Assembly (NCBI GenBank): GCA_023485545.1 | Contig: JAMCZI010000005.1 | Coordinates: 967 to 64,966 of the forward strand | Origin: Candidatus Marsarchaeota archaeon | GTDB lineage: Archaea > Micrarchaeota > Micrarchaeia > Micrarchaeales > Micrarchaeaceae | Direction of reading: 5' to 3' | Length of the DNA stretch: 64,000 bases | Shown here: in pieces, positions 8,531 to 57,284 of the stretch | How the letters are laid out: each line of letters opens with the position of its first letter | Numbering within the stretch: position 1 is the first letter of the stretch | Made by a program: the position numbers and the translations under genes | The notes under the pieces: generated by a model | The model's input: only the letters and a program-made list of their open reading frames with translations | Told to the model about the DNA's origin: nothing | Database searches by the model: none

Positions 8531-10051
8531 TTGGTTCTTTGCATGATAAGGCTCTCTGACGATTTTTCAATAAGCGAGCAGGACTTGCTCACTGGCAGAT
8601 GCTGCATAATAGGCCAGAGCGGCTCTGGCAAATCGTTCCTCGTAGGGGTCATCGCGGAGGAGCTCGCAAGGGAGCACCTGCCCTTCGTGGTGATAGATAC
8701 TGAAGGAGAATACAAATCCCTCAAGAGCCTGTTCGAGGTCATATGGGTGTCGGATGAGAGCGGAGCCGACGTAGGGATGGATGTTGATTTCTCCGCGCTG
8801 ATAGAGAAAAGCATGCTCGGCATACCGATCGTTTTCGATGTGTCTGGGCAACAGGACCAGGTCGGTAAAGTGTACTCCTTCCTCTCCGAACTTTACGCGG
8901 TGGAAGACAGGGTAAGGAAGCCGTACCTCGCAATAATAGAGGAAGCTGACAAGTTCGCCCCACAGGTAAAGCGCGGCGAGCTCAATATAATTGAGGAGAT
9001 AAGCGTCAGGGGGCGCAAGCGCGGCTTAGGCATATTGGTGGCGACCCAGAGGCCCGCAAACATAAGCAAGAATGTGCTTGCGCAGTGCTCGTACGGTTTC
9101 ATAGGCAAGCTCAGCATAGAGAATGATGTCAACGCAATAAGCATACTTTTCGAGGACAGGAACATGCTAAAGGAGCTTGTGACGCTCCATACCGGCGAAT
9201 TCATGCCTTTCGGCATAGATTCTCCACAGAAGATAAAGATAAGAAAAAGGGTGGTAGAGCACATAAGCTCCACTCCAGAGCTTGGCACGCTTCCCGGAGG
9301 AGACATACATGCTGCGATAGCGGAACTTAAGCACTCATCTGGCCAGGCACAGAAGCGTGATCTTAGCGCGCCTATCCCTAGGATACGAATCATACGCGAA
9401 AGATTCGACATGTCGTACGCGCAGGCGTACGCTTCGCATGCATCTAGGAAGATACTGCCTTTTACCGGCTTTATGGTCAATTCGGTCGAGCCTAGATACA
9501 TGCGCGTCTCATCGACGCTCGTCAGGCTGCCCACAAAGCGGAAGAACGTATACTCTGAAAAATACATCATTTCATTTGGCAGCTCACTCCTGCGGGAGAC
9601 GAAAAAGGGTATAGAGCTGTACGATGTGGGGAGCAAAAAATTTGACAAATCCGCCCTATCCATACTGGCGGAAGTCAATTCTGCAGGGTCCGTCAAGCTT
9701 GGCAAGCTTGAACAGGAATTCGGCCAGTCCTCATCAAAGAGCGTTGAGCGCCTGGCAGATGCCGGAAGGCTAGAGGTAAGGAAGGACAAAGTGACAAGAT
9801 TCCCATGGAAGAGGTTCATGCGGGAGGCCCAATATGAAACTGGAGAGTCTTCGCCTTCGCAAATCACTCCTATAAGGCCAAAGACAAAGATAAGCAGCAG
9901 AGAACTCATAAGATCAATAATACCTGAAGCTTCGATAGTACGGAGGGAAAGCGCTTACTTGAAAGTGTACGAAATCACTCTTAGGCGCGGAAGCACAGTC
10001 AAAGTACTCTTCATAGATTCGCTCACGGGCAAGGAGATAAGGCTTCAGTAG
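8531..10051 (+). CDS. HerA/FtsK-superfamily (DUF87-type) P-loop ATPase with uncharacterised ~250-aa C-terminal extension
   Basis: Walker A GQSGSGKSF, Walker B LAIIEEADKF, VATQRPANISKNVL motif. An ATG at 8543 is a possible alternative start. Confidence 0.7.
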   Translation: MVLCMIRLSDDFSISEQDLLTGRCCIIGQSGSGKSFLVGVIAEELAREHLPFVVIDTEGEYKSLKSLFEVIWVSDESGADVGMDVDFSALIEKSMLGIPIVFDVSGQQDQVGKVYSFLSELYAVEDRVRKPYLAIIEEADKFAPQVKRGELNIIEEISVRGRKRGLGILVATQRPANISKNVLAQCSYGFIGKLSIENDVNAISILFEDRNMLKELVTLHTGEFMPFGIDSPQKIKIRKRVVEHISSTPELGTLPGGDIHAAIAELKHSSGQAQKRDLSAPIPRIRIIRERFDMSYAQAYASHASRKILPFTGFMVNSVEPRYMRVSSTLVRLPTKRKNVYSEKYIISFGSSLLRETKKGIELYDVGSKKFDKSALSILAEVNSAGSVKLGKLEQEFGQSSSKSVERLADAGRLEVRKDKVTRFPWKRFMREAQYETGESSPSQITPIRPKTKISSRELIRSIIPEASIVRRESAYLKVYEITLRRGSTVKVLFIDSLTGKEIRLQ

Positions 10052-13199: not shown

Positions 13200-13766
13200 A
13201 TGATGGAAAGAACACTCGTGCTGATAAAGCCTGATGGGGTATACCGCTCGCTTATAGGAAAGATAATATCCACAATGGAGGACGCTGGTCTCAAAGTTGT
13301 CGGAATGAAGATGGTGCGGCCAGACAAGAAACTGGCTGAGCAGCACTACATCCCTGACGAGAACTGGATGCGTGAGATCGGGGATAAGACCAAGGCGACA
13401 TATAAGGACCAGGGAGTCTCTAACAACGAGGAGCCTGTGGAGATAGGCAGAAGAGTCTGGATGCAGCTCATTGACTACCTAATGAGCGGGCCTGTGGCTG
13501 TGATGGTTGTGGAGGGCAACGACGCGATATTCGTAGTAAGAAAACTTGTGGGTGCAACAGAACCAAGAAAGGCAGATCCGGGCTCGATAAGGGGCAGGCT
13601 CTCAAGCGATTCCTACGCCCTTGCCGATGGGAAGCACCGCGCAGTAAAGAACCTGATACATGCATCGGACGCCCCTGAAACAGCGAAGCGTGAAATATCC
13701 GTCTGGTTCAAGCCGGAGGAACTTATAAAATACTCCAGGTCAGACGAGTCCGCGCAGTACGACTAG
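13200..13766 (+). CDS. ndk: Nucleoside diphosphate kinase (long form with internal insertion)
   Basis: ERTLVLIKPDG, catalytic-His context NLIHASD. An insertion of about 40 aa is present relative to short NDKs. Confidence 0.85.
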   Translation: MMERTLVLIKPDGVYRSLIGKIISTMEDAGLKVVGMKMVRPDKKLAEQHYIPDENWMREIGDKTKATYKDQGVSNNEEPVEIGRRVWMQLIDYLMSGPVAVMVVEGNDAIFVVRKLVGATEPRKADPGSIRGRLSSDSYALADGKHRAVKNLIHASDAPETAKREISVWFKPEELIKYSRSDESAQYD

Positions 13767-14563
13767 ATCGGGACCAGATAATACAGTATCACTAAAAACA
13801 GTGCCACAGCCAGTATAAGCGACAGGAAAGACATCGCGTAGCCCACTCCCTGCTGCTTCGACTCCGTAAACACCGCTAAAGAAATGCTCCATGCAACCCC
13901 AAGTAAAGCCAGCACTCCTCCTACTAGCGCGGAGACATGCGTGCCCAGACCGAAAAGAGGCAATACCGATTCTATTACGCTGATGTATACCCATGGCAGA
14001 TATCCGAATATAATCGCTGCAAATGAGTTGCTATATTCTCCAGAGAATCCCAGGAACATCTTGCCTACCCAGTTGCACAGCTCGGCTACAGCTATCAGTA
14101 TTAACGGCACTATTATGAAATGCTCTAGTAAGAACAGAAATACTGTGCCAGCAAGACCCGAAGTAAGAGCTTTTGGCATTATGCCTATAATGAACGAAGA
14201 AGGCATCATGTAAGATCTGAAGTACGCTGAATTCCCGTAGAAGATAAAAACGGGTATCATAAGAAGCGTAATAACTGCCATCACGCTTATGTAGAAGCCG
14301 CCAAGTCTTCCGGAGTCTATGTCACTGTCAATAAGATCTGACTTGAAAGCTATTACCTTGAATGATTCGAGGAAATCTCCTATGACGTGCACGCCCTCAA
14401 GTTTCTTCCCCATTTTTCTCCTAGCCTTCTCCCTCTCAGGATCCAGGCCGAGATATCTCTCCTCGTTCTCGAGATAAGTCTCTACATCTGGCCTCCTATT
14501 TCCTGCTTTGCCTTGGGATTCCTGGCTCGAAGGGCCATTGTTGACAGCCCAATCAGTATCCAT
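13763..14563 (-). CDS. Multi-pass membrane protein, possibly Yip1-domain family
   Basis: 266 aa. Charged N-terminal ~70 aa followed by about five hydrophobic helices. Its stop shares the CTAG tetranucleotide with the ndk stop. Family assignment is tentative. Confidence 0.45.
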   Translation of the reverse strand: MDTDWAVNNGPSSQESQGKAGNRRPDVETYLENEERYLGLDPEREKARRKMGKKLEGVHVIGDFLESFKVIAFKSDLIDSDIDSGRLGGFYISVMAVITLLMIPVFIFYGNSAYFRSYMMPSSFIIGIMPKALTSGLAGTVFLFLLEHFIIVPLILIAVAELCNWVGKMFLGFSGEYSNSFAAIIFGYLPWVYISVIESVLPLFGLGTHVSALVGGVLALLGVAWSISLAVFTESKQQGVGYAMSFLSLILAVALFLVILYYLVPI

Positions 14564-14660
14564 AGATGCATATCAACTCGACTGATTAAAATCTTTCGCT
14601 TCGCTTTCAACTCCAATAATCCTCCCCAAAAACTGTGGTTTTAACCATTTTACACAAATA

Positions 14661-14694
14661 TTTAAATATGTATTTAACTAAATATATATTTATT
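14661..14694 (+). promoter_or_regulatory. A/T-rich promoter region with TATA-like boxes upstream of the T4SS-like operon
   Basis: TTTAAATA at 14661..14668 and AAATATATATTTATT at 14680..14694. An AGGTG Shine-Dalgarno-like element at 14703..14707 lies 7 nt before ATG 14715. Confidence 0.4.
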
Positions 14695-14714
14695 TGAGTA
14701 TAAGGTGTATTACG

Positions 14715-15059
14715 ATGCAGAATAAACAAATCCGAAGTGCATTCTATCCCGTCCTTACGGCAGCTCTTTTCGCTGCAGTCCCTTTCAGCACAACAATTCT
14801 CACTGTGCTCTCAGAATTGCAGTACATACGTGGCGTTTTATACCAAGTGGGCCCTGCACTGAGTGCAGTCTTATTCATTATAGCCGGAATATTCTATGCA
14901 GTAGGGCAGATGTTACCGCCTGACAAGCGAGCCAATTTTCACACGACCGCCATAAACATAATAATAGGTGCGATAATAGTCGCGGTGCTGAGTTTCACTA
15001 GCACCTCTTTGGCAATAGCATCAACACACCTTCTTTCGAACTTTACAAATTCCTCTTGA
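14715..15059 (+). CDS. Small membrane protein with VirB2/TrbC/CedA1-like pilin architecture (candidate)
   Basis: Track ORF 14694..15059; ATG 14715 preferred because it is preceded by AGGTG. Layout: basic n-region MQNKQIRS, hydrophobic signal-like AFYPVLTAALFAAVPF, helix LSELQYIRGVLYQVGPALSAVLFIIAGIFYAVGQML, basic loop PPDKRANFH, then second hydrophobic helix TAINIIIGAIIVAVLSF. Confidence 0.5.
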   Translation: MQNKQIRSAFYPVLTAALFAAVPFSTTILTVLSELQYIRGVLYQVGPALSAVLFIIAGIFYAVGQMLPPDKRANFHTTAINIIIGAIIVAVLSFTSTSLAIASTHLLSNFTNSS

Positions 15060-15068
15060 GTTGAATAC

Positions 15069-16109
15069 GTGATAATACAAGCTTTCGGTGGGTATGCGAC
15101 TGCGTTGACGCTAGTATCACTGATGATAGGAGTATTCGGGATAGTCCTTGGTGTAGGCTATGCAATGGGCAATAAAAAGATTAAAGATTTCGGTTTTGAC
15201 GAACTGGTGCAAGCTTTCATAAGCGCAGCAATAATAGCTACTCTTTATGCTGCATTCAGCTATAACGGCATAATTAGCACCGCAATAGCACAGGTTTTTT
15301 ACAGCGCTAATGCAACTTCTACATGTTATGGATTCTTATCATCCAACCCTGCTATGTGTTTTGCCTATGCGTATACTACCGGGCTTGCACCGATATCGAT
15401 AAATGGGAAATCTTATCCGTCCCTAATGGATAGCGCAGTAACACTTCTTGCCCCCGTTTCAGTATTGTATGGCGTACTGTCAGTATTGGGTTCTATAAAA
15501 TTAAGCGGAATCTTCATAAGCGTTGGGTTCGCAAGTTTCGTGCAGCCCCTTCTTAGTCAAATAAATTACATAATAAGTAGCCTGACGTTCTCAATAATTA
15601 GCCTTGAAATACAGGGCGTAATAATAAAATTTGCTTCTATCGTTGCAGTACCAATACTTCTTCCTGCTGGAATCGTATTACGCGCCCTATATTTTACTAA
15701 AAGGCTCGGAGGGATGTTGATAGCGGTGGCTATAGGCTTTTACGCAGTTTTTCCGCTTACGTATCTTTTGGGGGCGCAGCTGATATCAGCATACGCTTCA
15801 AACCCTGGCGCACTTTCGGAATCAGTATCATCATACTCCGGAGGTGTAATAACCACTTTGCAGTCCACAACGCAACCGACTTTAACCTCTGGGAATTTCA
15901 GTATACTAAGCAGTCTCTATTCAGTTGTGAAAACCGCGATAGCCCCACTTGAAGCGATAGTCGAAGAGTTGATATCCACGATATCGCTGCTTATAACTGA
16001 GGTATTTTTTGTGCCTCTTTTGAGCTTGATGATAACAATAACATCAACGCGTGAGCTTGCAAGGATCTTAGGGTCTGAGATATCATTTGGTAAATTCGAT
16101 ATATTTTAA
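15069..16109 (+). CDS. Polytopic membrane protein (about 7-8 TM), VirB6/TrbL/CedA-like candidate
   Basis: 346 aa with a GTG start 10 nt after the previous stop. Hydrophobic helices run throughout and there is no soluble domain larger than about 40 aa. Confidence 0.45.
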   Translation: MIIQAFGGYATALTLVSLMIGVFGIVLGVGYAMGNKKIKDFGFDELVQAFISAAIIATLYAAFSYNGIISTAIAQVFYSANATSTCYGFLSSNPAMCFAYAYTTGLAPISINGKSYPSLMDSAVTLLAPVSVLYGVLSVLGSIKLSGIFISVGFASFVQPLLSQINYIISSLTFSIISLEIQGVIIKFASIVAVPILLPAGIVLRALYFTKRLGGMLIAVAIGFYAVFPLTYLLGAQLISAYASNPGALSESVSSYSGGVITTLQSTTQPTLTSGNFSILSSLYSVVKTAIAPLEAIVEELISTISLLITEVFFVPLLSLMITITSTRELARILGSEISFGKFDIF

Positions 16110-16125
16110 ACTTGGGCGAAATAGC

Positions 16126-16764
16126 ATGTTTGTGGACATTAGGTGGTATGAAAACATTAAAAAAGCATTTCAAAAATTCATGAAATTCCCCTTTGCTGAT
16201 CCGGATGGCATCAAGCCCGCACAGCAGTGGGAAATTTATGTTTCGAAGTCAGGGCTGTCTGCATATACATTTCACAAAGGAACATATCATGCTGCGGCAG
16301 GGCTGGAATTGGAAAACCCCTCTGGAGCCCCGATAGACGTGGTTGAGAATATGGTGTGCAAGTTAAATATGCCTATTAGGGTGCTAATGGACATAAAACC
16401 CGTAGGGATCAAGCGGATAATCGATGAATTAAAGTTTAAGGCTGCAAAGAAGGAAAATCAAATTAGACAACTGAACCCAAAAAAGCCATCAGGCAAAATA
16501 AAATTAAAAACTTTGGAGGTGCAAACAAAAAAGCTGCGAGAATTTGTGGAAACGATAGAAAATGGACGTATCCCATTCAAGGCATCCTTCATTATAATTT
16601 CGTCTGCAGCTTCACGAAACATCTATCAGGCCGAGGGTGACGCCCGTTCACAACTTGAGTATGCAAAATCAGGATTTGAAACGGTATATAAGTGCAGGTC
16701 AAGATTACTCTCTGGCATAGAAGTAAGAAATGTGCTATGCGGGGCCGAGAACGATGTTTACTAG
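16126..16764 (+). CDS. Soluble basic protein; candidate detached N-terminal domain of a VirB4-like ATPase
   Basis: Track ORF 16087..16764 (TTG start). ATG 16126 avoids overlap with the upstream gene. No P-loop. It sits immediately upstream of, and overlaps, the ATPase-domain gene. Confidence 0.35.
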   Translation: MFVDIRWYENIKKAFQKFMKFPFADPDGIKPAQQWEIYVSKSGLSAYTFHKGTYHAAAGLELENPSGAPIDVVENMVCKLNMPIRVLMDIKPVGIKRIIDELKFKAAKKENQIRQLNPKKPSGKIKLKTLEVQTKKLREFVETIENGRIPFKASFIIISSAASRNIYQAEGDARSQLEYAKSGFETVYKCRSRLLSGIEVRNVLCGAENDVY

Positions 16765-17875
16765 AAAAGAGATGGGCTTGAGCAATTCCAACATAATAGC
16801 TGGATTTATGCCCATTTTTCAGCCTAACGAAGATGCTGGCAGCATATCGAAAAGCGTTGGTGTACCAATAGGATTTAGCGAGAGATACTCGTCATTATTT
16901 CGGCTTGATCTAAATGCACCAGAAAATCCACATGTATCTATAATAGGGATGACCGGATCAGGGAAGACGCATTTAATTAAGACAATTATTTCAGGGACCG
17001 CATTGCTTAGTGAAGAAGTGCAGATAATAATTGACTGGAATGGCGAATATGTGGAATTATCCTTGGAATTAGGCGGTCTAGTTATAGATTTCGCTTTAAC
17101 AGACAGGTTAAAGCGTACTATGATAGAGAACCCGTCGTATAAAATTACCTGCTTTAATCTCTCTAATCTGGACGAGTCAAACCGCAGAAAAATTGCTAGT
17201 GAAATATTAAAGCAAACCCTTATTTACTCAAAATCCAAGGGCTTTAGCAAAAAAGTTGAAACTTTAATATTTGTAGACGAAGCTTGGAAGCTGCTAGACA
17301 GCGAAAGCATTACTGCTATTTTCCGTGAAGCACGCAAATATGGTCTTTCTATAATTGCAGCAAGTCAAATGTTAAGGGATATATCAAATGAAATTGTGGC
17401 TAATTCTGCGACACTTTTTGTTTTTCGGCTTCAGAATCCTGTAGATTTCGATGCGCTCAAATCCCTCAACATATTCGAGAAAATCGGAATCGATAGGATA
17501 AAAGATTTTGGCGTTGGTGAATGCGCGGTTTTAGCTTCGCCGCGTTCTGGTCTAAAGTGCGAAGTTGTGCTGAAAGTGCTTGATCTTACTAATCTAAAAA
17601 CGTATTATATACACGCATCAGGGGTGGATAAATTGGTCAGCGAAAAAAGTATAAAGAGAATTTCTGGCAGGCTTGGAATAAGCGAGAGTATGGTGTCCGA
17701 AGCAATTGCCATGTCCGTAAAAGGACGGCGCATAGATGCAGCAAAAATGTCAGCTTCGCTGTTGAAATCGGGAGTGGAATTAGCAGGTGTAATTACGCTT
17801 ATGCGACTTATTGGCGTTAGGGATATTGATATGTCCAAAATAATCTCAGGACTTTACAATTATAGTAACCGGTGA
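16754..17875 (+). CDS. P-loop ATPase of the VirB4/TrbE/TraC (HerA-FtsK superfamily) type
   Basis: Track ORF 16730..17875; ATGs at 16754 and 16772 are alternative starts. Walker A IIGMTGSGKTH, Walker B LIFVDEAWKLL (the DEAW form typical of VirB4-like ATPases), then REARKYGLSIIAASQMLRDI. Confidence 0.7.
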   Translation: MFTRKEMGLSNSNIIAGFMPIFQPNEDAGSISKSVGVPIGFSERYSSLFRLDLNAPENPHVSIIGMTGSGKTHLIKTIISGTALLSEEVQIIIDWNGEYVELSLELGGLVIDFALTDRLKRTMIENPSYKITCFNLSNLDESNRRKIASEILKQTLIYSKSKGFSKKVETLIFVDEAWKLLDSESITAIFREARKYGLSIIAASQMLRDISNEIVANSATLFVFRLQNPVDFDALKSLNIFEKIGIDRIKDFGVGECAVLASPRSGLKCEVVLKVLDLTNLKTYYIHASGVDKLVSEKSIKRISGRLGISESMVSEAIAMSVKGRRIDAAKMSASLLKSGVELAGVITLMRLIGVRDIDMSKIISGLYNYSNR

Positions 17876-17900
17876 TTCAATTAATGGCAGGGCAATCCTT

Positions 17901-18500
17901 GTGTCAGCAGTGAAGTTAGGTGTAACTTACACCTCCGACAGGAAAGCCATAATCAAAGCATTGTCCACAATTCCCTGTCTCAAGATATTGGATAAAGGGA
18001 CAATAATGAGATACTCAATTGCCGAATCTAATGAACGCGTAAAGCGTACAATTGAGCTAGGCAACGTGATTAGGGTAGTTGCAGAGTACAGCGATTATAA
18101 TCTACTGAGGCAGATAAGAATTAAATCACTGATTTATGCGTTGTCTATTGCATCATTTCTATCAGATTATATTAAAATAGACGTTTCTTCAGCATACTCC
18201 GAAATATTGGATCTTATGTTGCCTGAGATCATGCGCAACGATCAAATATCCACGGATAATAAGGATACTGTACTGCAAGAAGTATCTAAATCAAATTTTA
18301 TCCTATCGCAAAAACTTGTAGAAGCGGTTTCGCTTTTCGAAGCAGCTGAACAAAAAGCAAGCATGCTGCATTCTGCAACCATAAAGCTTTACGGCTGGCT
18401 GCAAAAGAACGTAAGCCAAACAGGCCAGAATGCACCAGCAGATACAAATGCTGCAGGCCTCTCAGATGAAGAGTTGGAACTAGTATTGGGTGGCTTATAA
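17901..18500 (+). CDS. Hypothetical soluble protein of the cluster
   Basis: 199-aa ORF (GTG start) with an acidic C-terminus DEELELVLGGL and no recognisable motif. Coding status is inferred from operon context and tight spacing. Confidence 0.45.
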   Translation: MSAVKLGVTYTSDRKAIIKALSTIPCLKILDKGTIMRYSIAESNERVKRTIELGNVIRVVAEYSDYNLLRQIRIKSLIYALSIASFLSDYIKIDVSSAYSEILDLMLPEIMRNDQISTDNKDTVLQEVSKSNFILSQKLVEAVSLFEAAEQKASMLHSATIKLYGWLQKNVSQTGQNAPADTNAAGLSDEELELVLGGL

Positions 18501-18502
18501 AA

Positions 18503-19357
18503 ATGAACAGCGTTAGGTTACTTATTGTTGTATGGGCGATAGGTGCCTTATCAATAGCCGCCATAATATATGCAAATGGCAATCTTTCAATAAGGTGCCA
18601 ACTTGTATGTCCCTCTTCTATACACCGCTCTGGTAACGCTATAACTTTTAGGCTGCCACGCATTGGTAATGCATCTCAAGTAAAAACCTTGACATTACTA
18701 TATTCTGGCGGCGCAATAATTCTAAACCCAAACAAAAGCGGCGTGTTTGGACTAAAATCTCCAGAATCGCCAGGAGTATATAGTGCTAACCTGTCTTACG
18801 CTGGCGCTAATCTTTTCTCAATATCCTTTGCATACCTTGGGGGCTTAGAATACATACCGTATGTACTGATTGGCGTGTCAATCTTTGCATCAATCGCTTC
18901 AATCTCGGAATATGTATCATCCCTTTCGGATTTTGAATTTTATGTTGGGGATTCGGTATACGATAACGTCGCCCCCTACTCATCCAATGAAATCGAGATT
19001 GAGAGAGCTATCGATATCATAAGGCTAAGGAAATCATCAAAACACGAAAAAATAGGATTTTCAGAACTTCTATTCATGATGCGTGGGATGCATGATTTTC
19101 GTGTTTCACCAAGTGAAGAAATTGTTAGGTACATGATATCCTCTGCAGAAGACAAACACATATGCGATAACTACGACAGACAACCTTCATTTAATTATGG
19201 TGAACTTTATTACGTCATTAAAGAGAGATGTCCTACAACAAATTTTAAACTAATATCTGGTCTTAAAATCCAAGAAGGAAGGAAGCGTTTCCCTAAACAC
19301 AGGCTCCTGTCAACTAGAGTAATTGCAATGATAAATGAAGGTGCCGCGAATGCTTGA
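18503..19357 (+). CDS. Two-TM membrane protein with ~90-aa external domain and ~140-aa C-terminal domain (unknown function)
   Basis: 284 aa starting 2 nt after the previous stop. N-terminal TM LLIVVWAIGALSIAAIIYA and second TM YIPYVLIGVSIFASIASI. Confidence 0.5.
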   Translation: MNSVRLLIVVWAIGALSIAAIIYANGNLSIRCQLVCPSSIHRSGNAITFRLPRIGNASQVKTLTLLYSGGAIILNPNKSGVFGLKSPESPGVYSANLSYAGANLFSISFAYLGGLEYIPYVLIGVSIFASIASISEYVSSLSDFEFYVGDSVYDNVAPYSSNEIEIERAIDIIRLRKSSKHEKIGFSELLFMMRGMHDFRVSPSEEIVRYMISSAEDKHICDNYDRQPSFNYGELYYVIKERCPTTNFKLISGLKIQEGRKRFPKHRLLSTRVIAMINEGAANA

Positions 19358-19538
19358 ACTAGGCAGATACGTAATCAAATCCGCTTTTGTGGTTTCAATG
19401 TTGTCCTTGATAACCTCAATTATAGTATACTCAGTTTCGCTTTCATCAAATGACAAGATTATTAGAAGAATATCAATAAGCATGTCGATTAGTGTGGCAC
19501 TGCTACTCTTCTTTATATTTGCGTACTACCTGGTGTGA
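19350..19538 (+). CDS. Small 2-TM membrane protein (VirB3/CedA2-like size class; speculative)
   Basis: Track ORF 19335..19538. ATG 19350 is preceded by AGGTG (19338..19342). Two hydrophobic segments flank SSNDKIIRR. Confidence 0.4.
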   Translation: MLELGRYVIKSAFVVSMLSLITSIIVYSVSLSSNDKIIRRISISMSISVALLLFFIFAYYLV

Positions 19539-19540
19539 AA

Positions 19541-19834
19541 ATGTTGGATATGGTGAGAAGATTTTATGGAAAACCGAAGGCAAGCGATAATATGCTACTG
19601 CCAGCCTGTTCGGCAATTATTGCATGGGCTTTAGCTTATACTGTGATGCCAGGCAAAGGTATGGCACCTACCTTATTTGATTTTATGCCTCCGGCAGCGA
19701 TATCGATTCCGCTATACGCATATTTGAACATAAAAAGTATACGCGGCCCAGATTCCCGCATTTTTTCCATTGCACTGTTACTCCTCACGTCTATAGTAGT
19801 AATAGCCGCGGTGATATTCAATGGAACACTATAA
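19541..19834 (+). CDS. Small membrane protein (2-3 TM)
   Basis: Track ORF 19535..19834 (GTG). ATG 19541 is preceded by GGTG. It overlaps the downstream ATPase gene by 14 nt. Confidence 0.4.
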   Translation: MLDMVRRFYGKPKASDNMLLPACSAIIAWALAYTVMPGKGMAPTLFDFMPPAAISIPLYAYLNIKSIRGPDSRIFSIALLLLTSIVVIAAVIFNGTL

Positions 19835-22076
19835 TCGTTCTAACTTTTTAGTAGAATCAGTGCCAAATGCGCAGATTGACATTGCAGGGATGTTGCAGGC
19901 AATAGGTGGCCGCACATTTTGCTTAATCCACGATTTTTTAGAAAGGCGAACGTATATTGAATTTTATTGCGATGACGTCGACCAAAGCACGACCATAATT
20001 AAAAAAATTGTACCTGGAATCTCACTTTCCCATGCAGATGTAATTACGATTGGAGAAATGCGTACAAAAGTCCTGTGCCTTTACAAGCAACCCTCTGGTA
20101 CCAGCTTCTTTAGCGAGTCGTTTTCATACTTAAGCTCTTCGAAGCTTTTCGTCTTTTTTATACCAGTGGATCAGATAGCGCTGCACTTGCGTAAGACTGA
20201 AATCGGAAAGCTGTTAAGCAAGGTAGAAGAAAAAGGAACATCTTCCGTGGCTGGCTCTGTGTTCAGTAAGCAGATAAGCACATCTTTACACACTGGCAAC
20301 TATAATGGTAGAGAAGAAGTTGAAATTCTTCGGACTATATTAGAATCTCTAGAAAATTCAATTATGAATGGATTGCCTGCATACAAGGTATATGCCTGCT
20401 TTGACAGCAGAGAGAAATCCATCCTAAATTATGTATCATCAAACTATGCCATAATAAGCAGCTTTGAGTTTGATTCGAGAGGTGATGATGCCCTGCTTCA
20501 TGAACTCGAGAAGTTCAATAGCCTTCCATTCGGGCTTCAATATTCAAAAAACTTCATCTCATTTCCGGTATCTCAAATAAAATACGTAGCTAAGACTGCC
20601 CCTCCTGCTACTTCGGGCAGAATATTGCTTGGCGAGTATGTCAGCAATGGTGCATTCCCAACTGGCGTAGCTGTGCATACTGAAGCCTCAGCATTAAATC
20701 TTGGACTGATCGTTACTGGTATGCCAGGTACGGGGAAGACCTCAGCTGTAATGAATATATTAGAGAGCGTAAGTAGGAATTCCGATGCCAGGATAATCAT
20801 AATATCTCCAACAAGAGAGTGGCGGAAATTTGGGGAGTTGGTAAAGGCAGATGTAATCGACTTGAATAATCCCTCATTAAGGATGAACCTATTCGGTTGC
20901 CCTGACGGATGCTCGGTTTCAAAGTTCTATGAGAACCTTGCCATGGTGCTTTCGCACGCCTCTGCAGCCGGCCCTTACCAGAAACCGCTTGAGAAATGCC
21001 TGCTTGATGCTTTTGAAGGCTTCAAGGATACGAACAATCCAGATCCACTAGAAGTATACAATGCAATAGAAGATTCAGTAATAAGACTGCACGGCAAGAG
21101 GACAAATACTGGCGTAAAGTATACAAAACATGGAGAGAACATCCATTCTGCAGTGGAAGATTTGCGGTTAGTACTAAGGCGCACACAGTTCAGGTCCAGA
21201 GCTGGAGTGGATATATACAATTCACCGAGCCGAAACATTATATTTGACATATCATCGTACGGCTCTCTTGCTATGAGCTACCTATACGCTGTAATACTAA
21301 ATCAGATATATTCGATAGCCGATTCAATGGATGAAATTGGAGAGGACAAGCTCCGATTGGTAGTTTGCCTTGAGGAGGCGCAATTGATATTCGGAGAAAG
21401 ATCGAAGGAGAATGATGCAGCTTTGCGCGATATAAAGAACAGGATACAGGATTTTCGCAAGAAGGGAATCGGATTGGTACTCATAACGCACAATGTATCC
21501 GATATAAATTCCGGAGTGCGTAGCATGTGCCAAACGAAAGCGTACTTCAAGCAAGCGCCTTCAGAGGCGGATAAAGCTGCTTCAGACTTGGTATTCTCTT
21601 TTTCGGAGAAGGAGAGCATAATCACAATGCTGACGCACCTTGAAAAAAGGGTCTTTGCACTTAATTATGTATTAAAACAAGAAGGTAATATGATAACTCC
21701 AGATTCTATATTCGTAAGATCCTTAGATTCATCATTCTCTAGAGTTTCTAAGCATGCGGATTCATCGGTGCCGTTTAAAGCAGTTTCAGAGGAACAGCTT
21801 ATAGAGTGCAGCATCTCATTAGCTTTTGACCCCGATAACACTGCCAAGCATAAAGGTGCTGAAGATCAAATAATTCCTGTCATCGTAGATTTCGGTATCG
21901 AGATTAAATGCGCACGGCAAATCGGAAATTCATACGCTGTAAGGCTTTATAAGCTGCAACGCTATTGGCTCTCTCTGCGCAATAGGAAAGGCGTAGAACT
22001 TTACGGTTCGTACATTCTCGCTGCAAAGCAAGTAACAGCCAGACTGGGCCAGTCCGGTATGGAAATCATTTACTGA
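19821..22076 (+). CDS. Large P-loop ATPase, HerA/FtsK/VirB4-VirD4 superfamily, with ~280-aa N-terminal domain
   Basis: 751 aa. Walker A LIVTGMPGTGKTS, Walker B RLVVCLEEAQLIF, then KKGIGLVLITHNVSDI. No TM segment of its own. Confidence 0.7.
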   Translation: MEHYNRSNFLVESVPNAQIDIAGMLQAIGGRTFCLIHDFLERRTYIEFYCDDVDQSTTIIKKIVPGISLSHADVITIGEMRTKVLCLYKQPSGTSFFSESFSYLSSSKLFVFFIPVDQIALHLRKTEIGKLLSKVEEKGTSSVAGSVFSKQISTSLHTGNYNGREEVEILRTILESLENSIMNGLPAYKVYACFDSREKSILNYVSSNYAIISSFEFDSRGDDALLHELEKFNSLPFGLQYSKNFISFPVSQIKYVAKTAPPATSGRILLGEYVSNGAFPTGVAVHTEASALNLGLIVTGMPGTGKTSAVMNILESVSRNSDARIIIISPTREWRKFGELVKADVIDLNNPSLRMNLFGCPDGCSVSKFYENLAMVLSHASAAGPYQKPLEKCLLDAFEGFKDTNNPDPLEVYNAIEDSVIRLHGKRTNTGVKYTKHGENIHSAVEDLRLVLRRTQFRSRAGVDIYNSPSRNIIFDISSYGSLAMSYLYAVILNQIYSIADSMDEIGEDKLRLVVCLEEAQLIFGERSKENDAALRDIKNRIQDFRKKGIGLVLITHNVSDINSGVRSMCQTKAYFKQAPSEADKAASDLVFSFSEKESIITMLTHLEKRVFALNYVLKQEGNMITPDSIFVRSLDSSFSRVSKHADSSVPFKAVSEEQLIECSISLAFDPDNTAKHKGAEDQIIPVIVDFGIEIKCARQIGNSYAVRLYKLQRYWLSLRNRKGVELYGSYILAAKQVTARLGQSGMEIIY

Positions 22077-23439
22077 TCAGGTACTCGCTTATGCGCTTCT
22101 GCATCATTATGTCGCGCAGTATCTTGCAGTTCCTTATCCAGTCTTTCAGCGGTATGTCCATCTTCGACCTTATGAAGCTGAACAGCTCTTCGGATGTGTT
22201 CATCACCACCGGCTTCATCGTGAGCGCTTCTCTGACATGCTCCCTCACATTCCATACGCCTACGGGCATAAGGTAACCCTCATGGACTTCCCTGAGTATC
22301 ATCACGCGCCCCTGTCCATGCATTTCGCTGAGCTTTTCGGTAACAGCAAGCCTTGCGGCATAATAGCATCCCCCTATTTCGGCATATGTCTTCCTTCCCC
22401 TGTACCCTTCATAAGAAGAGTATATCGATATGTCCTTCCCGTTCTCGTTCCACACCGTTTTCGGGTACCACGCCTCCGCTGATTCATATTCCCAGTTGCC
22501 CGGCATGAATATTATGAGCCAGCGATTATCCAGCGATACGTGGTAAAATGCGTAAATTGCATCAAGGCTTTCGAATGATTTTACATCCTTCAGCAAGTTT
22601 TTCGAAAGCGTGTCATCAACAGCTGTTATGCTCCATCTTGTTGGGACGAACTTCCTTGATTTTCCTCTGCCAAGCGTGCCAGCTGAAAGCGCCTGCTGGA
22701 TTTTTGACACTGGAATGTTGTTTTCGTATAGCTCTATGAGCGAAGTAGTGGCAGTTGCATCTGTGTCGCTGTACGCTTTCTCAAGCTTTCTGTCAGCCTT
22801 GACGTTGTAGAGATCCATAGTCTTCATTATGGCGCTTGGCCCAAACGGCTGCACCTCATCGTTGAAGCTCAACTTTACGAATGGTTTCTTGCTAAAATTC
22901 AGCTCTGCTTCCGCCGGCCTCTCTGCAAGTGCAAGATCTCTTACCATCTCCTCCATGCGCCCTTTCTCAACGTTGTCGACTCTTGTGAGGTGCATGCCCC
23001 TGACTAGCTTTGACCTGTAGCTTACTATGCTTGGAATCGAGAGGTTCCTCCACCTCTCCGGTGTCCCGAGTATGGAAGTGTCGCCGAAAGTGGGCGGCAC
23101 CATCGGGCCTATGAATACCTTTGGATAGCCGAACCTTCCTACAAAAACATCAGTTGGAGAAGAACCCGCGAGCTCAAGCTTGTCTGTCGCAGGCATCATC
23201 TTGACCCTGTAGTAATAGCGCAGCAGCGCCGGGTCGCGCATGTGCCTGTACACTATGTCTGATCGCTTGACGCCGGGGCTGGACTCGTTGAGCTCGTTTA
23301 TGAGGTTCTTCCTGGTCTCGCCTCCAAGCATGCAATCACTACCCTTTCTCAATTCAGATTTATAACCATTTTCAGCATCCGAAACAAGCCATTTTCTTGT
23401 AGAGCTGAAAGAAATATACGCATTATCATACAAAACCAA
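22066..23439 (-). CDS. nreA: Archaeal Nre-family DNA repair protein
   Basis: 457 aa. VFVGRFGYPKVFIGPMVPP matches the conserved GYPxVxxGP block of Nre (DUF650/DUF651) proteins. The true start may be the internal MLGGETRK. Confidence 0.7.
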   Translation of the reverse strand: MVLYDNAYISFSSTRKWLVSDAENGYKSELRKGSDCMLGGETRKNLINELNESSPGVKRSDIVYRHMRDPALLRYYYRVKMMPATDKLELAGSSPTDVFVGRFGYPKVFIGPMVPPTFGDTSILGTPERWRNLSIPSIVSYRSKLVRGMHLTRVDNVEKGRMEEMVRDLALAERPAEAELNFSKKPFVKLSFNDEVQPFGPSAIMKTMDLYNVKADRKLEKAYSDTDATATTSLIELYENNIPVSKIQQALSAGTLGRGKSRKFVPTRWSITAVDDTLSKNLLKDVKSFESLDAIYAFYHVSLDNRWLIIFMPGNWEYESAEAWYPKTVWNENGKDISIYSSYEGYRGRKTYAEIGGCYYAARLAVTEKLSEMHGQGRVMILREVHEGYLMPVGVWNVREHVREALTMKPVVMNTSEELFSFIRSKMDIPLKDWIRNCKILRDIMMQKRISEYLISK

Positions 23440-48596: not shown

Positions 48597-48694
48597 AGCC
48601 TCAGGAGGGATTTGAACCCCCGGCCTTCTGCTTTGTGGCATCCCTAAGCCGGGATTTACCATGCAGACGCTCTGCCATGCTGAGCTACTGAGGC
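48597..48694 (-). tRNA. tRNA-Thr (anticodon GGU) with 24-nt intron at the canonical 37/38 position
   Basis: Reverse complement: GCCTCAG TA GCTC AGCATGGCA GAGC G TCTGC ATGGTA[AATCCCGGCTTAGGGATGCCACAA]A GCAGA AGGCC GGGGG TTCAAAT CCCTC CTGAGGC T. Intron is about 48633..48656. Confidence 0.8.
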
Positions 48695-51153: not shown

Positions 51154-51188
51154 TTGCCGTGGTAATAAAGACTGTAAGAAGTGTGAAA

Positions 51189-57100: not shown

Positions 57101-57284
57101 TTACATTTCGACTCCGGAGTACAGTTACACCTACTCCCCTAACCAGACTATACAGTCTCTTCCGATAGGCAGCTACGCCCTGAGCCTCGGAGATATCGAG
57201 GCAGTGCTGCTTGTTGCCATAGCTGCTATACTGATCATGCTTGCCGCAATGCACCCCAGAAAGTGGGCCTTCACACATGGCTAA
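51189..57284 (+). CDS. Giant secreted, C-terminally anchored surface protein (PKD-like domain, Ser-rich linkers, many N-glycosylation sequons)
   Basis: Track ORF 51159..57284 (2041 aa). Signal peptide MRQTGMYLVLIIISLMLAHSSAAQS. PKD-like segment VTFTLSAKKGYGPYSYTYSV...FTVTDAGGQTATATAQVTV. C-terminal TM AVLLVAIAAILIMLAAM followed by basic residues. Confidence 0.75.
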   Translation: MRQTGMYLVLIIISLMLAHSSAAQSLQQGQQANATLPQVAYQTTSQPTSDYAYYTVTQPQYPGGPPVTNSYYYTNFTLVGGFNSGCRSSLWHAGPGTTVTCTRNGATFSFTETQNNDTTVVYGSGQNYPKNNMFTVSGQPDAVWVSYSTSCGFFSTCYHVGYASINQPPTGSYLDIYGVYYAGFTQTNMPSSCAGDMNSNNSPVTCNSITYDKIHDGSALMYEQYSTDGFPEAYMKVSIYQNESNKSQYYAAFPYETVSSCSGPSCRFGGTKSAVYAAGMTPALSLSVSPSSFVTVLKRQVTFTLSAKKGYGPYSYTYSVSGPGKYSESGSGTSESFTFYSQGSYLITFTVTDAGGQTATATAQVTVNKPTIPPQCNPYTPTAGNCIFLNGSTITTGNYGNYAGTGSFSTSQNGPTSNTPVIANVILSNLANNQYLLTCPNTPNPSNTLEYIVGNGVSRIGGDACLANANSLKTNVSLETNVTWSQYQVANGTINVHFINLTQAYLDDLGYVGEANNSGSYAYNISNGYGTNTLIYQNVPSQTQYGIWSWYAKYADLSSANNPSFLSKAKFAEAFPSLDAPFQYLTVDVNETNSAGNSYTCAYNYTYSIGDSLDSIQSANITIPKQINAQGDSYVNINGINHKPYTYANGGNSVYSQSCTNYVFYQSCSTSGNSGYDSLWAGQNDIVIGSNTFTLASPNNVATVKVYSSGKYTSEPGNYYFYDNGATNTYWVPYCILASSGLVGPTCKQQSSGLALGVGTYTANIYFGSAPNGQQWTNSSIFPYFLYNISVPATYSNLAAHAEYLNLSYDTYSPYNYLNPANALEPLPIQMGSGLFATINGILSVLPLNITSTTDPNVQELSSAPQAYFISDLTPTTANSLHLGFLKSLFGNYTSAAVSSPSFIAASPNDNIYALNYTSIPSDCFGFCISTTTDSYLYDMRFIPYGYFNVSNEQPDSVAPEPNSIAWNESWKSYWNASLAEQSANLYIVGVSNVSRVQGGIFGISGGFFGWGKSIIPKALTFNAIPTAITTDDAGDVFFSGVDPNNGKLTLGYRLANGTSNESAAQQVPPGFHASDMLASDPGGQYLYLANSSFANVTVYGSVNATYVGEIALNYSNPLNMLNITSYLAHGGPYGNAQIAAAYSGAPTSNDISSYHHPIALADVGGIQYVMDNWTFTVNGLKSTVLTLRAFTSNGIEVSIDPQSYYDLIPSNSGLVSVSTGSLGGALSNPPYGWPLAANISLPDGTYVSYCAYGCTYTPNSLDTAYPPIASMVEADGANVGQRNFSIGINFNGTVYIISHSYISGVKSCTSSGVHGGIVCTTTPSKPLYAELLSFQPQIVNYTTVSNMANSHYTCYVAPDASSSTASNTPCTVEQQNIKTSSSSGSSSEPNPAWSILSDMYGPILGVPSSFKYVENLGYPTDYVSAVTALASTSSSLSSSSSSPSSANIIANTINVGNGIPSNSLPISPSQLIPRTSLTSNISGYVLVPYKASFSLSEDWTPSSQAPKSSNGDSCPSSYSFPSSVNKKYTIFTYGVSKVNSSTNTTAIEGGSIFLQYFGTGVYYSPELSDANLIMPPRIGYEMFTNRLIGEAYVNLTATTSGEQNPQMILNQSHNYNYYESLHYLDAFGKSVPAYATEVAVPDNVVGNLGSVSGYYNPNNYLPKSNNFTLSNFTNDGGIASIVNAYHIASTLDSLGIDMTGHKSILGYDRLVYNLIDRFGNKISMPLDIDMANITSLSLSAVDNIDPTNPNQSTIAVKGFAGYVTGSTPVSVNPLPAGQKIYVYYDTNINFYPSQTYQSLQSYAQYAENCAYGSNAYGCTLANPTNATQNGGNTVGGEVVSSLVTYSPQYVNGQSCSPQPSSLLTQQNYWECNIYGDYGLKSSQIGPSGQVEYCLPDFINGTGQFTSQLGLVGIATTNSSGGFSMNVPACGTGTSRIIAEYYGVPSPQPNLVSQVPLAYSANTVDSSNAALYISTPEYSYTYSPNQTIQSLPIGSYALSLGDIEAVLLVAIAAILIMLAAMHPRKWAFTHG

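Follow-up and report, generated by a model that had tools for sequence, protein, structure and literature searches.

A putative two-piece VirB4-like motor encoded in a conserved chromosomal gene cluster of Micrarchaeota

Known type IV systems and the Micrarchaeota locus

To our knowledge, VirB4 is the only ATPase that all type IV secretion and conjugation systems share, and in every well-studied case that we know of, its docking N-domain and its motor domain lie on one chain. In bacterial type IV systems, the N-terminal domain (NTD) docks the motor to VirB3, VirB8 and VirB6. The structural reference for what follows is TrwK, the VirB4 protein of R388 (PDB 7o41–7o43, 8rtb, 8rtd), the N-domain of which comprises residues 15–400 (PMC9259494). 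A variant of this layout is seen in VirB3–VirB4 fusions, where a two-helix membrane hairpin is followed by the N-domain; several such fusions are annotated among the matches to the TrwK NTD. In archaea, Ced (Sulfolobales) and Ted (Thermoproteales) are composed of VirB2-, VirB6- and VirB4-like proteins, and a HerA-like ATPase is often found beside Ted loci (PMC9905601). The ATPases CedB and CedD possess, besides a transmembrane (TM) segment, N-domains that can be superposed on portions of the VirB4 NTD (PMC11868833).

The locus described here lies in a 64,000-nucleotide stretch of DNA (the window) from the genome of a micrarchaeon, an acid-mine archaeon. It includes two neighbouring genes on the forward strand: ORF1 (16126–16764), encoding a soluble, 212 aa protein without a P-loop, and ORF2 (16754–17875), encoding a 373 aa ATPase of the HerA/VirB4 clade when read from the ATG at 16754. 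We consider it probable that, together, ORF1 and ORF2 encode a translationally coupled, two-piece VirB4-like motor for secretion or DNA translocation, belonging to a chromosomal, minimal type IV apparatus of the Ced/Ted kind. ORF2 would be the motor subunit, and ORF1 the N-domain subunit, with a predicted fold like that of the VirB4 NTD.

The pair resembles TrwK/VirB4 in several respects: the motor is of the HerA/VirB4 clade and displays Walker A, DEAW and R-x-x-R-K...Q motifs, the N-module has a similar predicted fold, a VirB2-like pilin gene adjoins, and full-length TrwK is the top structural match both for ORF1 alone and for ORF1 and ORF2 together. It differs in that N-module and motor are on separate polypeptides in the Micrarchaeota cluster, and in that the ORF2 motor carries an additional C-terminal helical extension of ~80 aa. 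Most members of the ORF1 family share the hairpin-then-N-domain order of the VirB3–VirB4 fusions, but the chain stops before the motor domain, and the ORF1 of the window is without the hairpin.

The likeness to Ced and TedB lies in an archaeal, chromosomal, minimal set of genes: a VirB2-like pilin, a polytopic membrane protein, and a VirB4/HerA-like ATPase. As in Ced, which has two paralogous ATPases per system, the Micrarchaeota cluster encodes a second ATPase (751 aa) besides ORF2; as in CedB and CedD, a TM segment accompanies a divergent N-domain that resembles the VirB4 NTD in part and is recognizable by structure only. However, each of CedB, CedD and TedB unites TM, NTD and ATPase in one polypeptide, whereas the TM/NTD part is a gene of its own in Micrarchaeota. 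The hosts also differ—hyperthermophilic crenarchaea as opposed to a DPANN archaeon of acid mine environments—and DNA import, the function of Ced and Ted, is a candidate function of the Micrarchaeota cluster. An ecological analogy is offered by the type IV secretion system (T4SS) of Patescibacteria, which is likewise chromosomal, conserved and minimal, occurs in ultra-small episymbionts and possibly forms a pilus; it differs in being bacterial, akin to monoderm conjugation systems, and in having VirB4 as a single protein (PMC12102498; review PMC12857230).

An old and conserved split

ORF1 lies in frame 1, with a start at ATG 16126 or TTG 16087 and a TAG stop at 16762–16764. ORF2 lies in frame 2: an in-frame stop is found directly upstream of 16730, the candidate starts are ATG 16730, 16754 and 16772, and the gene ends with TGA at 17873–17875. 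The starts of homologues correspond to 16754. With this start, the two genes overlap by 11 nt (16754–16764, forward strand), giving a junction of the translational-coupling type; use of ATG 16772 would instead leave a 7 nt gap after ORF1. ORF2 contains Walker A (GMTGSGKT, 16946–16969), Walker B (D-E-A-W, 17276–17287), and an R-E-A-R-K-Y-G...A-S-Q block (17324–17368). An earlier note on this DNA had described two overlapping ORFs, an upstream 212 aa product lacking a P-loop, and the DEAW and R-K-Y-G...ASQ motifs, all of which are borne out by the sequence. The note left a choice between translational coupling of two genes and a frameshift, authentic or introduced by sequencing, in a once-continuous gene.

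Viewed locally, two ORFs that lie side by side in different frames and overlap slightly could be the halves of one gene, broken by a frameshift (that is, a pseudogene) or split by an indel that arose in sequencing or assembly. Wider comparison refutes this reading, and we give it practically no credence. The junction is identical, with no indels, in contigs from four independent metagenome assemblies (four runs from four studies, depth 8–55), and exact copies of the ORF1 and ORF2 proteins have been called in other assemblies. Among the 43 related loci that were fetched (from species-representative MAGs), all 41 that could be scored show the two-gene arrangement and none shows a fusion: an upstream ORF of 202–265 aa abuts an ATPase ORF of 285–472 aa (mostly 363–383 aa). 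The genes are also separate in loci L001–L005 and L058, and the split persists in all homologous loci, including those with no more than ~25% ATPase identity. At most of the related loci, the junction is an overlap of 4 nt (13 loci), 1 nt (seven loci) or 8 nt (four loci), or else a gap of no more than 10 nt. In L058, which is the closest relative, ORF1 and ORF2 overlap by 14 nt, and a 3 nt indel within this overlap leaves both frames open. Comparison with L058 gives dN/dS values of ~0.11 for ORF1 and ~0.10 for ORF2, indicative of purifying selection on both, and the catalytic motifs of ORF2 are intact.

Protein databases tell the same story. No fused form was found (i) in a HMMER search of 1.84e9 representative proteins with an ORF1 profile (36 matches, all of 125–254 aa), (ii) in a search of a 5.8e9-protein database with a 42-member family profile (13 matches, all of 177–242 aa), or (iii) in a word-indexed search with ORF1. 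One consequence of the lack of fused forms among these matches is that Rosetta-stone evidence for ORF1 and ORF2 is not to be had. The pairing goes beyond chance, since the homologues always adjoin in the 41 scorable loci and purifying selection acts on both genes. What these comparisons show is a split that is old and conserved, and that is due neither to sequencing error nor to gene breakage; of the two alternatives in the earlier note, it is the translational coupling of two real genes that the data favour.

The motor protein and its upstream partner

ORF2 matches Pfam families DUF87 (7.9e-12) and AAA_10 (1.2e-7). Its best partial matches in NCBIfam are to the VirB4-like CD1110 (4.1e-15), TraC (2.7e-13), CedD (1.6e-12) and CedB (2.5e-11), and TrbE is also among the partially matched models. 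The scores stay far under the curated NCBIfam cut-offs (TIGR00929, TraC, TrbE, CD1110: 55 bits vs. 325, 48.8 vs. 567, 32.8 vs. 643). Against the CedB and CedD equivalogs (NF041017 and NF053655), only the ATPase core is matched, at 42.9 bits vs. a cut-off of 700 and 46.9 vs. 600, respectively; with scores of 43–47 bits against cut-offs of 600–700, ORF2 is not a CedB/CedD orthologue.

At the sequence level, the top scores of the ATPase core are with HerA-like proteins. Among PDB sequences, HerA-type proteins are matched at 2e-17 and the VirB4 C-terminal domain (CTD; 4ag5) at 6e-10. The top single family score is to PADLOC mad8 (2.1e-21), the 314 aa profile of which is covered nearly end to end; the only other mad family matched, mad3, scores 0.0083. 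The mad8 protein belongs to a defence system (MADS) and is a HerA-like ATPase that is short and stands alone; short motors without an N-domain, such as ORF2, thus do exist. ORF2 differs from HerA in being without a HAS-barrel, and in its linkage to pilin and membrane protein genes rather than to NurA, SIR2, DUF4297 or a methylase.

ORF2 lacks any N-domain: neither PF03135 (CagE_TrbE_VirB) nor a HAS-barrel was found on the ATPase polypeptide. It aligns with HerA from residue ~130 onwards; in the VirB4, TraC and CedB/CedD models, it is the C-terminal halves that it matches. ORF2 starts ~30 residues ahead of the HerA-aligning region and ~65 residues ahead of Walker A. The earlier proposal that ORF2 is a motor domain only is upheld by these alignments. 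In keeping with membership of the VirB4 family, ORF2 has a RecA-like ATPase domain of the HerA/FtsK/VirB4 clade with both Walker A and Walker B intact, and its catalytic motif residues are invariant across an alignment of 21 homologues. The protein ends in a C-terminal helical extension of ~75–90 aa (17642–17872, forward strand), which is conserved in the family (alignment columns ~330–400), contains a near-invariant L-R-x-x-G-x-x-D motif, and is modelled as helices (residues 509–583 of a concatenated ORF1+ORF2 model) at pLDDT 85–93. No Pfam match was obtained beyond residue ~290.

ORF1 has no Pfam or NCBIfam family match. When Pfam was run on the 42 members of the ORF1 family alignment with E values up to 10, PF03135 did not appear and coiled-coil noise was all that was returned, as was also the case for the family profile against PDB sequences. 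Alignment of the family by hhalign gave E 0.38 against TrwK, E 0.074 (prob 0.8%) against a purpose-built alignment of 13 proteobacterial VirB4 NTD sequences, and no match against TrwM/VirB3 (R388 reference proteins TrwK, TrwL, TrwI and TrwM from NC_028464). Loci L049–L056, from a genome scan, had been candidates for the NTD reference, and were dropped because they are not canonical VirB4 genes.

Predicted structure gave a different outcome. The AF2 model of ORF1 (pLDDT 81.9, pTM 0.65) shows an alpha/beta fold that includes a long helical hairpin. In a Foldseek search of the PDB, the best 14 matches are all TrwK/VirB4 chains (E 3.8e-4 to 5e-2, prob 0.97–1.0), while the next match has a prob of 0.16. 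The fold match to TrwK is a moderate one (TMq 0.40–0.49, rmsd 6–8 Å) between one solved protein and one predicted model. A viral structure library (BFVD) returned two significant matches only, including a "Component of type IV transporter system". The possibility that ORF1 is the HAS-barrel of HerA was ruled out by the fold, as no HerA structure was matched by the model. With ORF1 and ORF2 concatenated, the best 11 PDB matches are full-length TrwK (E 6.6e-15 to 3.8e-12, 486–655 columns), with HerA (~6e-12) and the VirB4 CTD alone (4ag5, 2e-10) at lower ranks. The concatenated model was built from a block-diagonal alignment and has a pTM of 0.50 and a disordered linker; it consequently supports no claim about an ORF1–ORF2 interface. 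What it does suggest, through its colinear, full-length alignment, is a placement of ORF1 on the VirB4 NTD.

The view that ORF1 is a relative of the VirB4 N-domain is hence partly supported, with the predicted fold speaking for it and all sequence and profile tests negative. The earlier note had cast ORF1 as the missing N-terminal domain, membrane-proximal and of the expected size. The first of these propositions gains from the exclusive TrwK/VirB4 fold matches and from the colinearity of the concatenate with full-length TrwK, and loses from the sequence and profile tests. The size argument goes part of the way, given a folded core of ~175 aa that amounts to roughly half of the TrwK N-domain. 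Membrane proximity does not hold for the protein of the window: an N-terminal TM hairpin is kept by 40 of the 42 family members, but a hydropathy scan shows that it is missing here.

The surrounding cluster and its possible role

ORF1 and ORF2 are part of a co-oriented cluster on the forward strand. The first gene of its conserved core (14694–15059) encodes a candidate VirB2/TrbC-like pilin of 121 aa with hydrophobic segments. The window protein matches Pfam T4SS_pilin (E=1.1e-4) and TrbC (E=2.1e-3), each under the gathering score; among orthologues, T4SS_pilin is matched by 21 of 38 (best 9.8e-7) and TrbC by 19 of 38, and hhalign aligns the pilin with R388 TrwL over 50 columns (E=0.0015). An orthologue occupies the same relative position in 40 related loci. 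The next gene (15069–16109) encodes a polytopic membrane protein of 346 aa with ~8 hydrophobic segments in a hydropathy scan, and has an orthologue directly 5' of the ORF1 homologue in 41 related loci. None of 37 members of this family had a Pfam match, and hhalign found none against TrwI/VirB6; by its position, which is that of the VirB6/CedA/TedA channel, the protein is presumably a channel. The core order—VirB2-like pilin, polytopic membrane protein, N-domain protein, ATPase—is invariant in the related loci.

Downstream, four co-oriented genes (17901–19834, forward strand) encode a soluble protein of 199 aa, a protein of 284 aa with two hydrophobic segments, a 67 aa TM hairpin and a 99 aa membrane protein. 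L001 and L058 have genes of matching sizes in an identical order, and phmmer finds the 199 aa protein in nine loci. None of the four has a family match in Pfam, NCBIfam, PADLOC or PHROG; a role as accessory components of the apparatus is probable. The last cluster gene in this lineage (19821–22076, forward strand) encodes the 751 aa ATPase, also of the HerA/VirB4 clade, with weak matches to Pfam Zot, HerA_C and DUF87, and to NCBIfam VirB4_plasma (3.8e-8), PADLOC mad8 (1.7e-14) and PDB HerA (3.8e-6). In 22 of 42 loci, an orthologue follows the ORF2 homologue 2.4–3.6 kb downstream. The cluster is flanked by housekeeping genes (AdoMet synthase, IF-2, NDK, Nre) that are syntenic in L001 and L058, so that it occupies the same chromosomal site in three related genomes. 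VirB3, VirB5, VirB7–VirB11, VirD4 and a relaxase were not recognised in the cluster, and its proteins gave no relaxase or integrase match in Pfam or NCBIfam. Its gene order and housekeeping flanks suit a Ced/Ted-type system.

Two further readings of these data were weighed. ORF2 could be a complete, short, stand-alone ATPase of the HerA/mad8 kind, in which case ORF1 would be a lineage-specific accessory protein or tether, functionally similar to VirB3 or VirB8, and its likeness to TrwK convergent or a coincidence of modelling; the two would be partners instead of pieces of a split VirB4. The negative outcome of every sequence and profile test of ORF1 against VirB4 is in line with this, as are the nearly full coverage of the mad8 profile, the VirB3-like hairpin on most ORF1 homologues, and the lack of Rosetta-stone evidence wherever fused forms were searched for. 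Other HerA-like ATPases are also without an N-domain, both in the window (8531–10051) and in bacteria (forms of ~500 aa, with Walker A at residue ~36). Yet a tether of this kind would have to account for fold matches that are significant for TrwK/VirB4 chains and for nothing else in the PDB, for a T4SS component emerging from an independent viral structure library, and for the way in which adding ORF1 to ORF2 lifts full-length VirB4 above both HerA and the VirB4 CTD alone. The ORF1 family does not match VirB3 (TrwM) in hhalign, and CedB and CedD provide an archaeal precedent for divergent, partial VirB4-NTD-like domains that are detectable by structure alone (PMC11868833). The earlier note would have given up its idea if relatives kept the genes separate and the ATPase aligned end to end with a complete, short ATPase that leaves no N-domain missing. 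Formally, half of this was found: the genes are apart in relatives, and the ATPase can be aligned over its full length with homologues that are just as short. All of these short homologues, however, carry the same upstream partner, indicating an N-domain that is delivered in trans and not one that can be dispensed with. On balance, we regard the stand-alone reading as improbable.

It is very unlikely, in our judgement, that the cluster is a HerA-based defence system, or the remnant of a virus or plasmid with a packaging-type ATPase, and that ORF1 is a partner specific to such a system. ORF2 and the 751 aa ATPase do match PADLOC HerA and mad8, and terminase-like and Zot-like families of PHROG; the STIV2 packaging ATPase B204 is among the PDB matches; and the G+C content of the cluster is lower than that of its flanks (41% vs. 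48–51%). But matches to the defence and viral libraries are confined to the ATPases: no effector, methylase, nuclease, capsid or integrase was found among the cluster proteins in Pfam, NCBIfam, PADLOC or PHROG, and searches of the nine cluster proteins against Pfam, NCBIfam and PADLOC gave none of the partners NurA, SIR2, DUF4297 or a methylase. No mad partner genes were found by PADLOC among the neighbours of ORF2, of which only the 751 aa ATPase matches mad8. A VirB2/TrbC-like pilin sits in the core, and the G+C deficit of the core is not consistent over 37 related loci (mean -0.005). In addition, the cluster's presence in 40 or more species-level MAGs, with an invariant core order and housekeeping flanks, is unlike the patchy distribution of defence islands or proviruses.

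Under the two-piece VirB4-like motor that we favour, ORF2 would provide a RecA-like, hexameric ATPase of the HerA/VirB4 clade, and ORF1 would provide, in trans, a domain folded like part of the VirB4 NTD. Overlap of stop and start would couple translation and so keep the amounts of the two subunits matched. The ORF1 protein of most Micrarchaeota would be held by its N-terminal two-helix membrane anchor; this anchor appears to have been lost in the lineage of the window, where docking would therefore proceed through other membrane proteins of the cluster. The pair would energise a vertically inherited apparatus consisting of the VirB2-like pilin, the presumed channel, small membrane proteins and the second ATPase, with the archaeal DNA-exchange systems Ced and Ted as nearest analogues. 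Features that we infer are a physical association of ORF1 with ORF2, the kind of substrate (DNA or something else) and the direction in which it moves.

A family with stable separation of the two, found in no fewer than 40 species-level genomes, would demonstrate that docking and motor functions can be supplied in trans, and archaeal T4SS-derived systems, a group recognised only recently and represented by Ced and Ted, would extend to DPANN archaea. Micrarchaeota are DPANN episymbionts of acidophilic archaea. More tentatively, they may use a domesticated, vertically inherited type IV-like pilus to take up DNA or material from hosts or neighbours, with a motor that arose by stable fission of VirB4 and that has lost its anchor in the lineage of the window. 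If fission and anchor loss did occur, the VirB4 N-domain would be workable in trans, and the cluster would offer a natural system for parting docking from motor; if the pilus serves uptake, Micrarchaeota would possess an archaeal equivalent of the Patescibacteria T4SS. A literature search returned no account of the Micrarchaeota cluster or of a split VirB4, although prior publication is still possible. On co-transcription, three metatranscriptomes of the same study gave no RNA evidence, containing nothing over positions 14600–18000.

Genes of the ORF1 and ORF2 families are at present annotated as "hypothetical protein" and "DUF87/ATP-binding protein". The results call for a correction of these annotations, and for caution against "repairing" such pairs as frameshifts.

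The ORF1–ORF2 junction

The pair of interest consists of two overlapping genes on the forward strand. ORF1 runs from ATG 16126 to TAG 16762–16764 (212 aa, with a further TTG upstream at 16087), and ORF2, read in the +1 frame with respect to ORF1, runs from ATG 16754 to TGA 17873–17875 (373 aa counted from that ATG). The ORF2 frame is open from just before 16730 and offers three candidate starts (ATG 16730, 16754 and 16772); the position of ATG 16754 matches the start of ORF2 homologues, and taking it as the start gives an overlap of 11 nt. ORF2 carries, all on the forward strand, (i) a Walker A motif, GMTGSGKT (16946–16969), (ii) a DEAW Walker B motif (17276–17287), and (iii) a REARKYG...ASQ block (17324–17368). 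The sequence therefore bears out the basic layout described in an earlier note: a P-loop-free ORF, overlapped by an ATPase ORF with the DEAW and R-K-Y-G...ASQ motifs.

The earlier note read ORF1 and ORF2 as a VirB4-like ATPase apparently split over two genes, consistent either with translational coupling or with a frameshift (authentic or a sequencing error). The second option does not hold. The region 16400–17100 is covered at depth 8–55 by contigs of four runs, each from a different study (the sources being mine drainage, mine tailings and sediment), and each contig differs by one SNP and zero indels; hence, the indel that the note proposed looking for around the junction is absent from all four. 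Proteins identical to those of ORF1 and ORF2 have been called independently in other assemblies, and ORF2 homologues of 100% to ~23% identity are nearly all 362–382 aa long. Scanning one genome per species gave 43 loci with an ORF2 relative, nearly all of them labelled Micrarchaeota. Of these, 41 were scored; L039, which is cut by a contig end, and L044, which gave no ORF, were left out. All 41 have a same-strand ORF of 202–265 aa directly before an ATPase ORF of 285–472 aa (mostly 363–383), and a fused gene was found in none of them. At most of the junctions the two ORFs overlap by 4 nt (13 loci), 1 nt (7 loci) or 8 nt (4 loci), or lie no more than 10 nt apart; larger apparent overlaps are an effect of the ORF finder choosing the most upstream start. 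The same two-gene arrangement is seen in gene calls of metagenomic contigs.

In L058, the closest relative (74% and 80% identity), synteny is complete and the genes overlap by 14 nt; the 3-nt indel that separates the window from L058 within the overlap leaves both frames open. Against L058, dN/dS is ~0.11 for ORF1 and ~0.10 for ORF2, similar to neighbouring genes, these values being approximate with dS near saturation. Searches for a fused form in larger databases were also negative: an ORF1 HMMER profile gave 36 matches among 1.84 billion representative proteins, all of 125–254 aa, and a 42-member profile gave 13 matches in a 5.8-billion-protein database, all of 177–242 aa. Given the indel-free contigs, the conserved split, the dN/dS values and the lack of a fused form, we rule out a frameshift or a sequencing or assembly artefact at the junction; that either explains the two ORFs is improbable in the extreme.

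Sequence nearly identical to 16400–17100 (85–96% of sampled words) occurs in at least 13 metagenome runs, drawn from six studies on acid mine drainage, mine tailings and sediment, which makes the organism a widespread one at such sites.

Family relationships and predicted fold

ORF2 is a motor domain of the HerA/VirB4 clade without an N-domain; a conserved helical extension of ~80 aa follows at the C-terminus. The Pfam matches of ORF2 are DUF87 (HerA central domain, 7.9e-12), AAA_10 and TrwB_AAD_bind. The best NCBIfam matches are VirB4-like CD1110 (4.1e-15), TraC (2.7e-13), CedD (1.6e-12), mycoplasma VirB4 (9e-12) and CedB (2.5e-11), together with HerA; all are partial, covering the C-terminal halves of long models with scores far under the cut-offs. 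Among PDB sequences, the ORF2 family profile matches HerA-type ATPases at 2e-17 to 6e-14 and 4ag5, the C-terminal domain of VirB4, at 6e-10; the start of the query falls near HerA residue ~130, past the HerA N-domain. It follows from these partial alignments that ORF2 is a bare motor domain, as its length had suggested. The extension (17642–17872, +) contains a near-invariant L-R-x-x-G-x-x-D and matches no family; on visual inspection, it resembles small helix-turn-helix-like modules.

The ORFs upstream of the ATPase form one family (42 aligned members). In 40 of these, a strongly hydrophobic N-terminal stretch of ~45 aa, which reads as two transmembrane helices, precedes a soluble domain of ~175 aa. 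Window ORF1 and its homologue in the related locus L006 lack the hydrophobic part and begin at the conserved amphipathic W-Y-x-I helix immediately after it; the L058 homologue, from outside the alignment, is likewise 212 aa long and without the two-helix anchor. There is no space for the missing segment 5' of ORF1, the preceding gene ending at 16109.

The earlier note suggested that the upstream product could be the missing N-terminal domain, judging by its size, to be checked by aligning the joined products to full-length VirB4/TrbE/CedB. At the level of sequence, this finds no support: neither Pfam on all members nor a profile search of PDB sequences links the ORF1 family to a known family, and hhalign gives no link to TrwK (VirB4 of plasmid R388), to TrwM/VirB3, or to a purpose-built 13-sequence alignment of VirB4 N-terminal domains. 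The predicted fold, however, points to TrwK. The AlphaFold2 model of ORF1 (37 sequences; pLDDT 81.9, pTM 0.65) is confident, with a core at residues 34–206; the fold is alpha/beta, and a long helical hairpin spans residues 95–145. In a Foldseek search of the PDB, its top 14 matches are all TrwK/VirB4 chains of R388 (E 3.8e-4 to 5e-2, probability 0.97–1.00, query TM-score 0.40–0.49, 172–243 columns); the match after these has a probability of only 0.16, and no HerA chain is among the matches. Against predicted viral structures only two matches are significant, one annotated "Component of type IV transporter system".

A model of the joined ORF1 and ORF2 (pLDDT 78.7, pTM 0.50, disordered junction) has full-length TrwK as its 11 best PDB matches (E 6.6e-15 to 3.8e-12, 486–655 columns), above HerA (about 6e-12) and the isolated VirB4 C-terminal domain (2e-10). 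Foldseek reports a single colinear local alignment, here over nearly all of the 585-aa query, and so ORF1 must align N-terminal to the TrwK motor. ORF1 would thus fall inside the TrwK N-domain (residues 15–400; PMC9259494), a placement inferred from colinearity, as the Foldseek output carries no residue ranges. With a high rmsd of ~22 Å, the modelled domain orientation is uninformative.

ORF1 is likely to be a genuine VirB4-NTD-like subunit. The main rival, in which ORF1 is an unrelated accessory subunit and ORF2 a complete short motor, would sit well with the negative sequence comparisons and with the top PADLOC match of ORF2, mad8, a short stand-alone HerA-like ATPase (2.1e-21); the TrwK matches of both models speak against it, and we regard it as unlikely.

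We conclude that the two genes are real and conserved and encode a VirB4-like motor. With scores far under every cut-off, the pair falls outside the curated VirB4, TraC, TrbE, CedB, CedD and HerA families: the defining single-chain NTD-CTD architecture and PF03135 of VirB4 are both absent, as is the HAS barrel of HerA. CedB and CedD of Sulfolobales combine a TM segment with N-domains that can be superposed on different portions of the VirB4 N-domain; Ced and Ted are minimal sets of VirB2-, VirB6- and VirB4-like proteins (PMC11868833, PMC9905601); the pair would work like the VirB4 of such a system. The description that fits it best is a new split variant in the VirB4/HerA clade, where "split" means two genes and is no claim of a fused ancestor. 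We found no description of a split VirB4 or type IV-like cluster in Micrarchaeota in the open-access literature; DPANN archaea have no entry in the 2025 T4SS nomenclature review, from which the word "split" is likewise absent.

Gene cluster and proposed working

The order of pilin-like gene, polytopic membrane protein, ORF1 homologue and ATPase is identical in all related loci. The first gene encodes a VirB2/TrbC-like protein of 121 aa (Pfam T4SS_pilin in 21/38 orthologues, best 9.8e-7, and TrbC in 19/38; hhalign with R388 TrwL, E 0.0015). The second product, of 346 aa, has about eight hydrophobic segments and no detectable similarity to VirB6; its position and the Ced/Ted precedent make it a putative channel. 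Downstream of ORF2 lie genes for a soluble protein of 199 aa, for three small membrane proteins and, last in the cluster, for a second HerA/VirB4-clade ATPase of 751 aa (19821–22076), the N-terminal ~290 aa of which have no family assignment. In 22 of 42 loci this second ATPase is conserved at a distance of 2.4–3.6 kb downstream from the ORF2 homologue; candidate identities are a CedD-like paralogue, a coupling protein and a HerA of the Ted-locus type.

In R388, VirB3 wraps around the VirB4 N-domain, which contacts the VirB8 tails and VirB6 and docks the hexameric motor beneath the membrane channel (PMC9259494). By analogy, the ORF1 protein would be the docking subunit and ORF2 the motor; the overlapping stop and start may provide matched amounts of the two products, which would assemble non-covalently and power the extraction of pilin and/or the transfer of substrate through the membrane protein whose gene lies upstream. 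Association of the products, substrate and direction of transport are all inferred here. In the window lineage, the docking subunit would have lost its own anchor and would have to rely on protein–protein contacts; the small TM-hairpin proteins encoded downstream are possible partners.

The cluster (14000–22100) has a G+C content of 39–44% per gene and 41% overall, against 48–51% in the flanks; a core G+C deficit is not consistent across 37 other loci. Despite the low G+C here, the cluster occupies the same chromosomal site in related genomes, with the same flanking housekeeping genes in L001/L006 and L058 (AdoMet synthase, IF-2 and NDK upstream; Nre downstream), and family searches of its proteins gave no match to integrase, relaxase, nuclease, methylase or capsid families. 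It looks like a resident chromosomal system rather than a mobile element, provirus or defence island.

A gene for a 266-aa Yip1-domain-like membrane protein (13763–14563, −) separates NDK from the pilin gene; it has a size counterpart (267 aa) in L058, and L001/L006 has no gene at that place. The MAGs of three loci with the same cluster (L013, L008 and L028) bear the label Candidatus Acidoferrum (Acidobacteriota) or Marsarchaeota, not Micrarchaeota, which probably reflects mis-binning or labelling.

Other features of the window

Located 4.6 kb upstream of the cluster, a third DUF87/HerA-like ATPase (506 aa; 8531–10051) has syntenic counterparts in L001 and L058. Its Walker A motif is only ~30 residues from the N-terminus, so it has no N-domain; bacterial proteins of ~500 aa with a similar layout are found at L051, L054 and L055. 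Two large ORFs on the reverse strand, one of 2041 aa with a weak PKD-domain match (51159–57284) and one of 693 aa with a bacterial Ig-like (Big_1) domain (27204–29285), are candidate surface/adhesion proteins of the sort discussed for DPANN–host contact. Finally, ARAGORN calls a 98-nt tRNA-Phe with anticodon AAA (48597–48694, −); both length and anticodon are unusual, and it may be a mis-called intron-containing archaeal tRNA.
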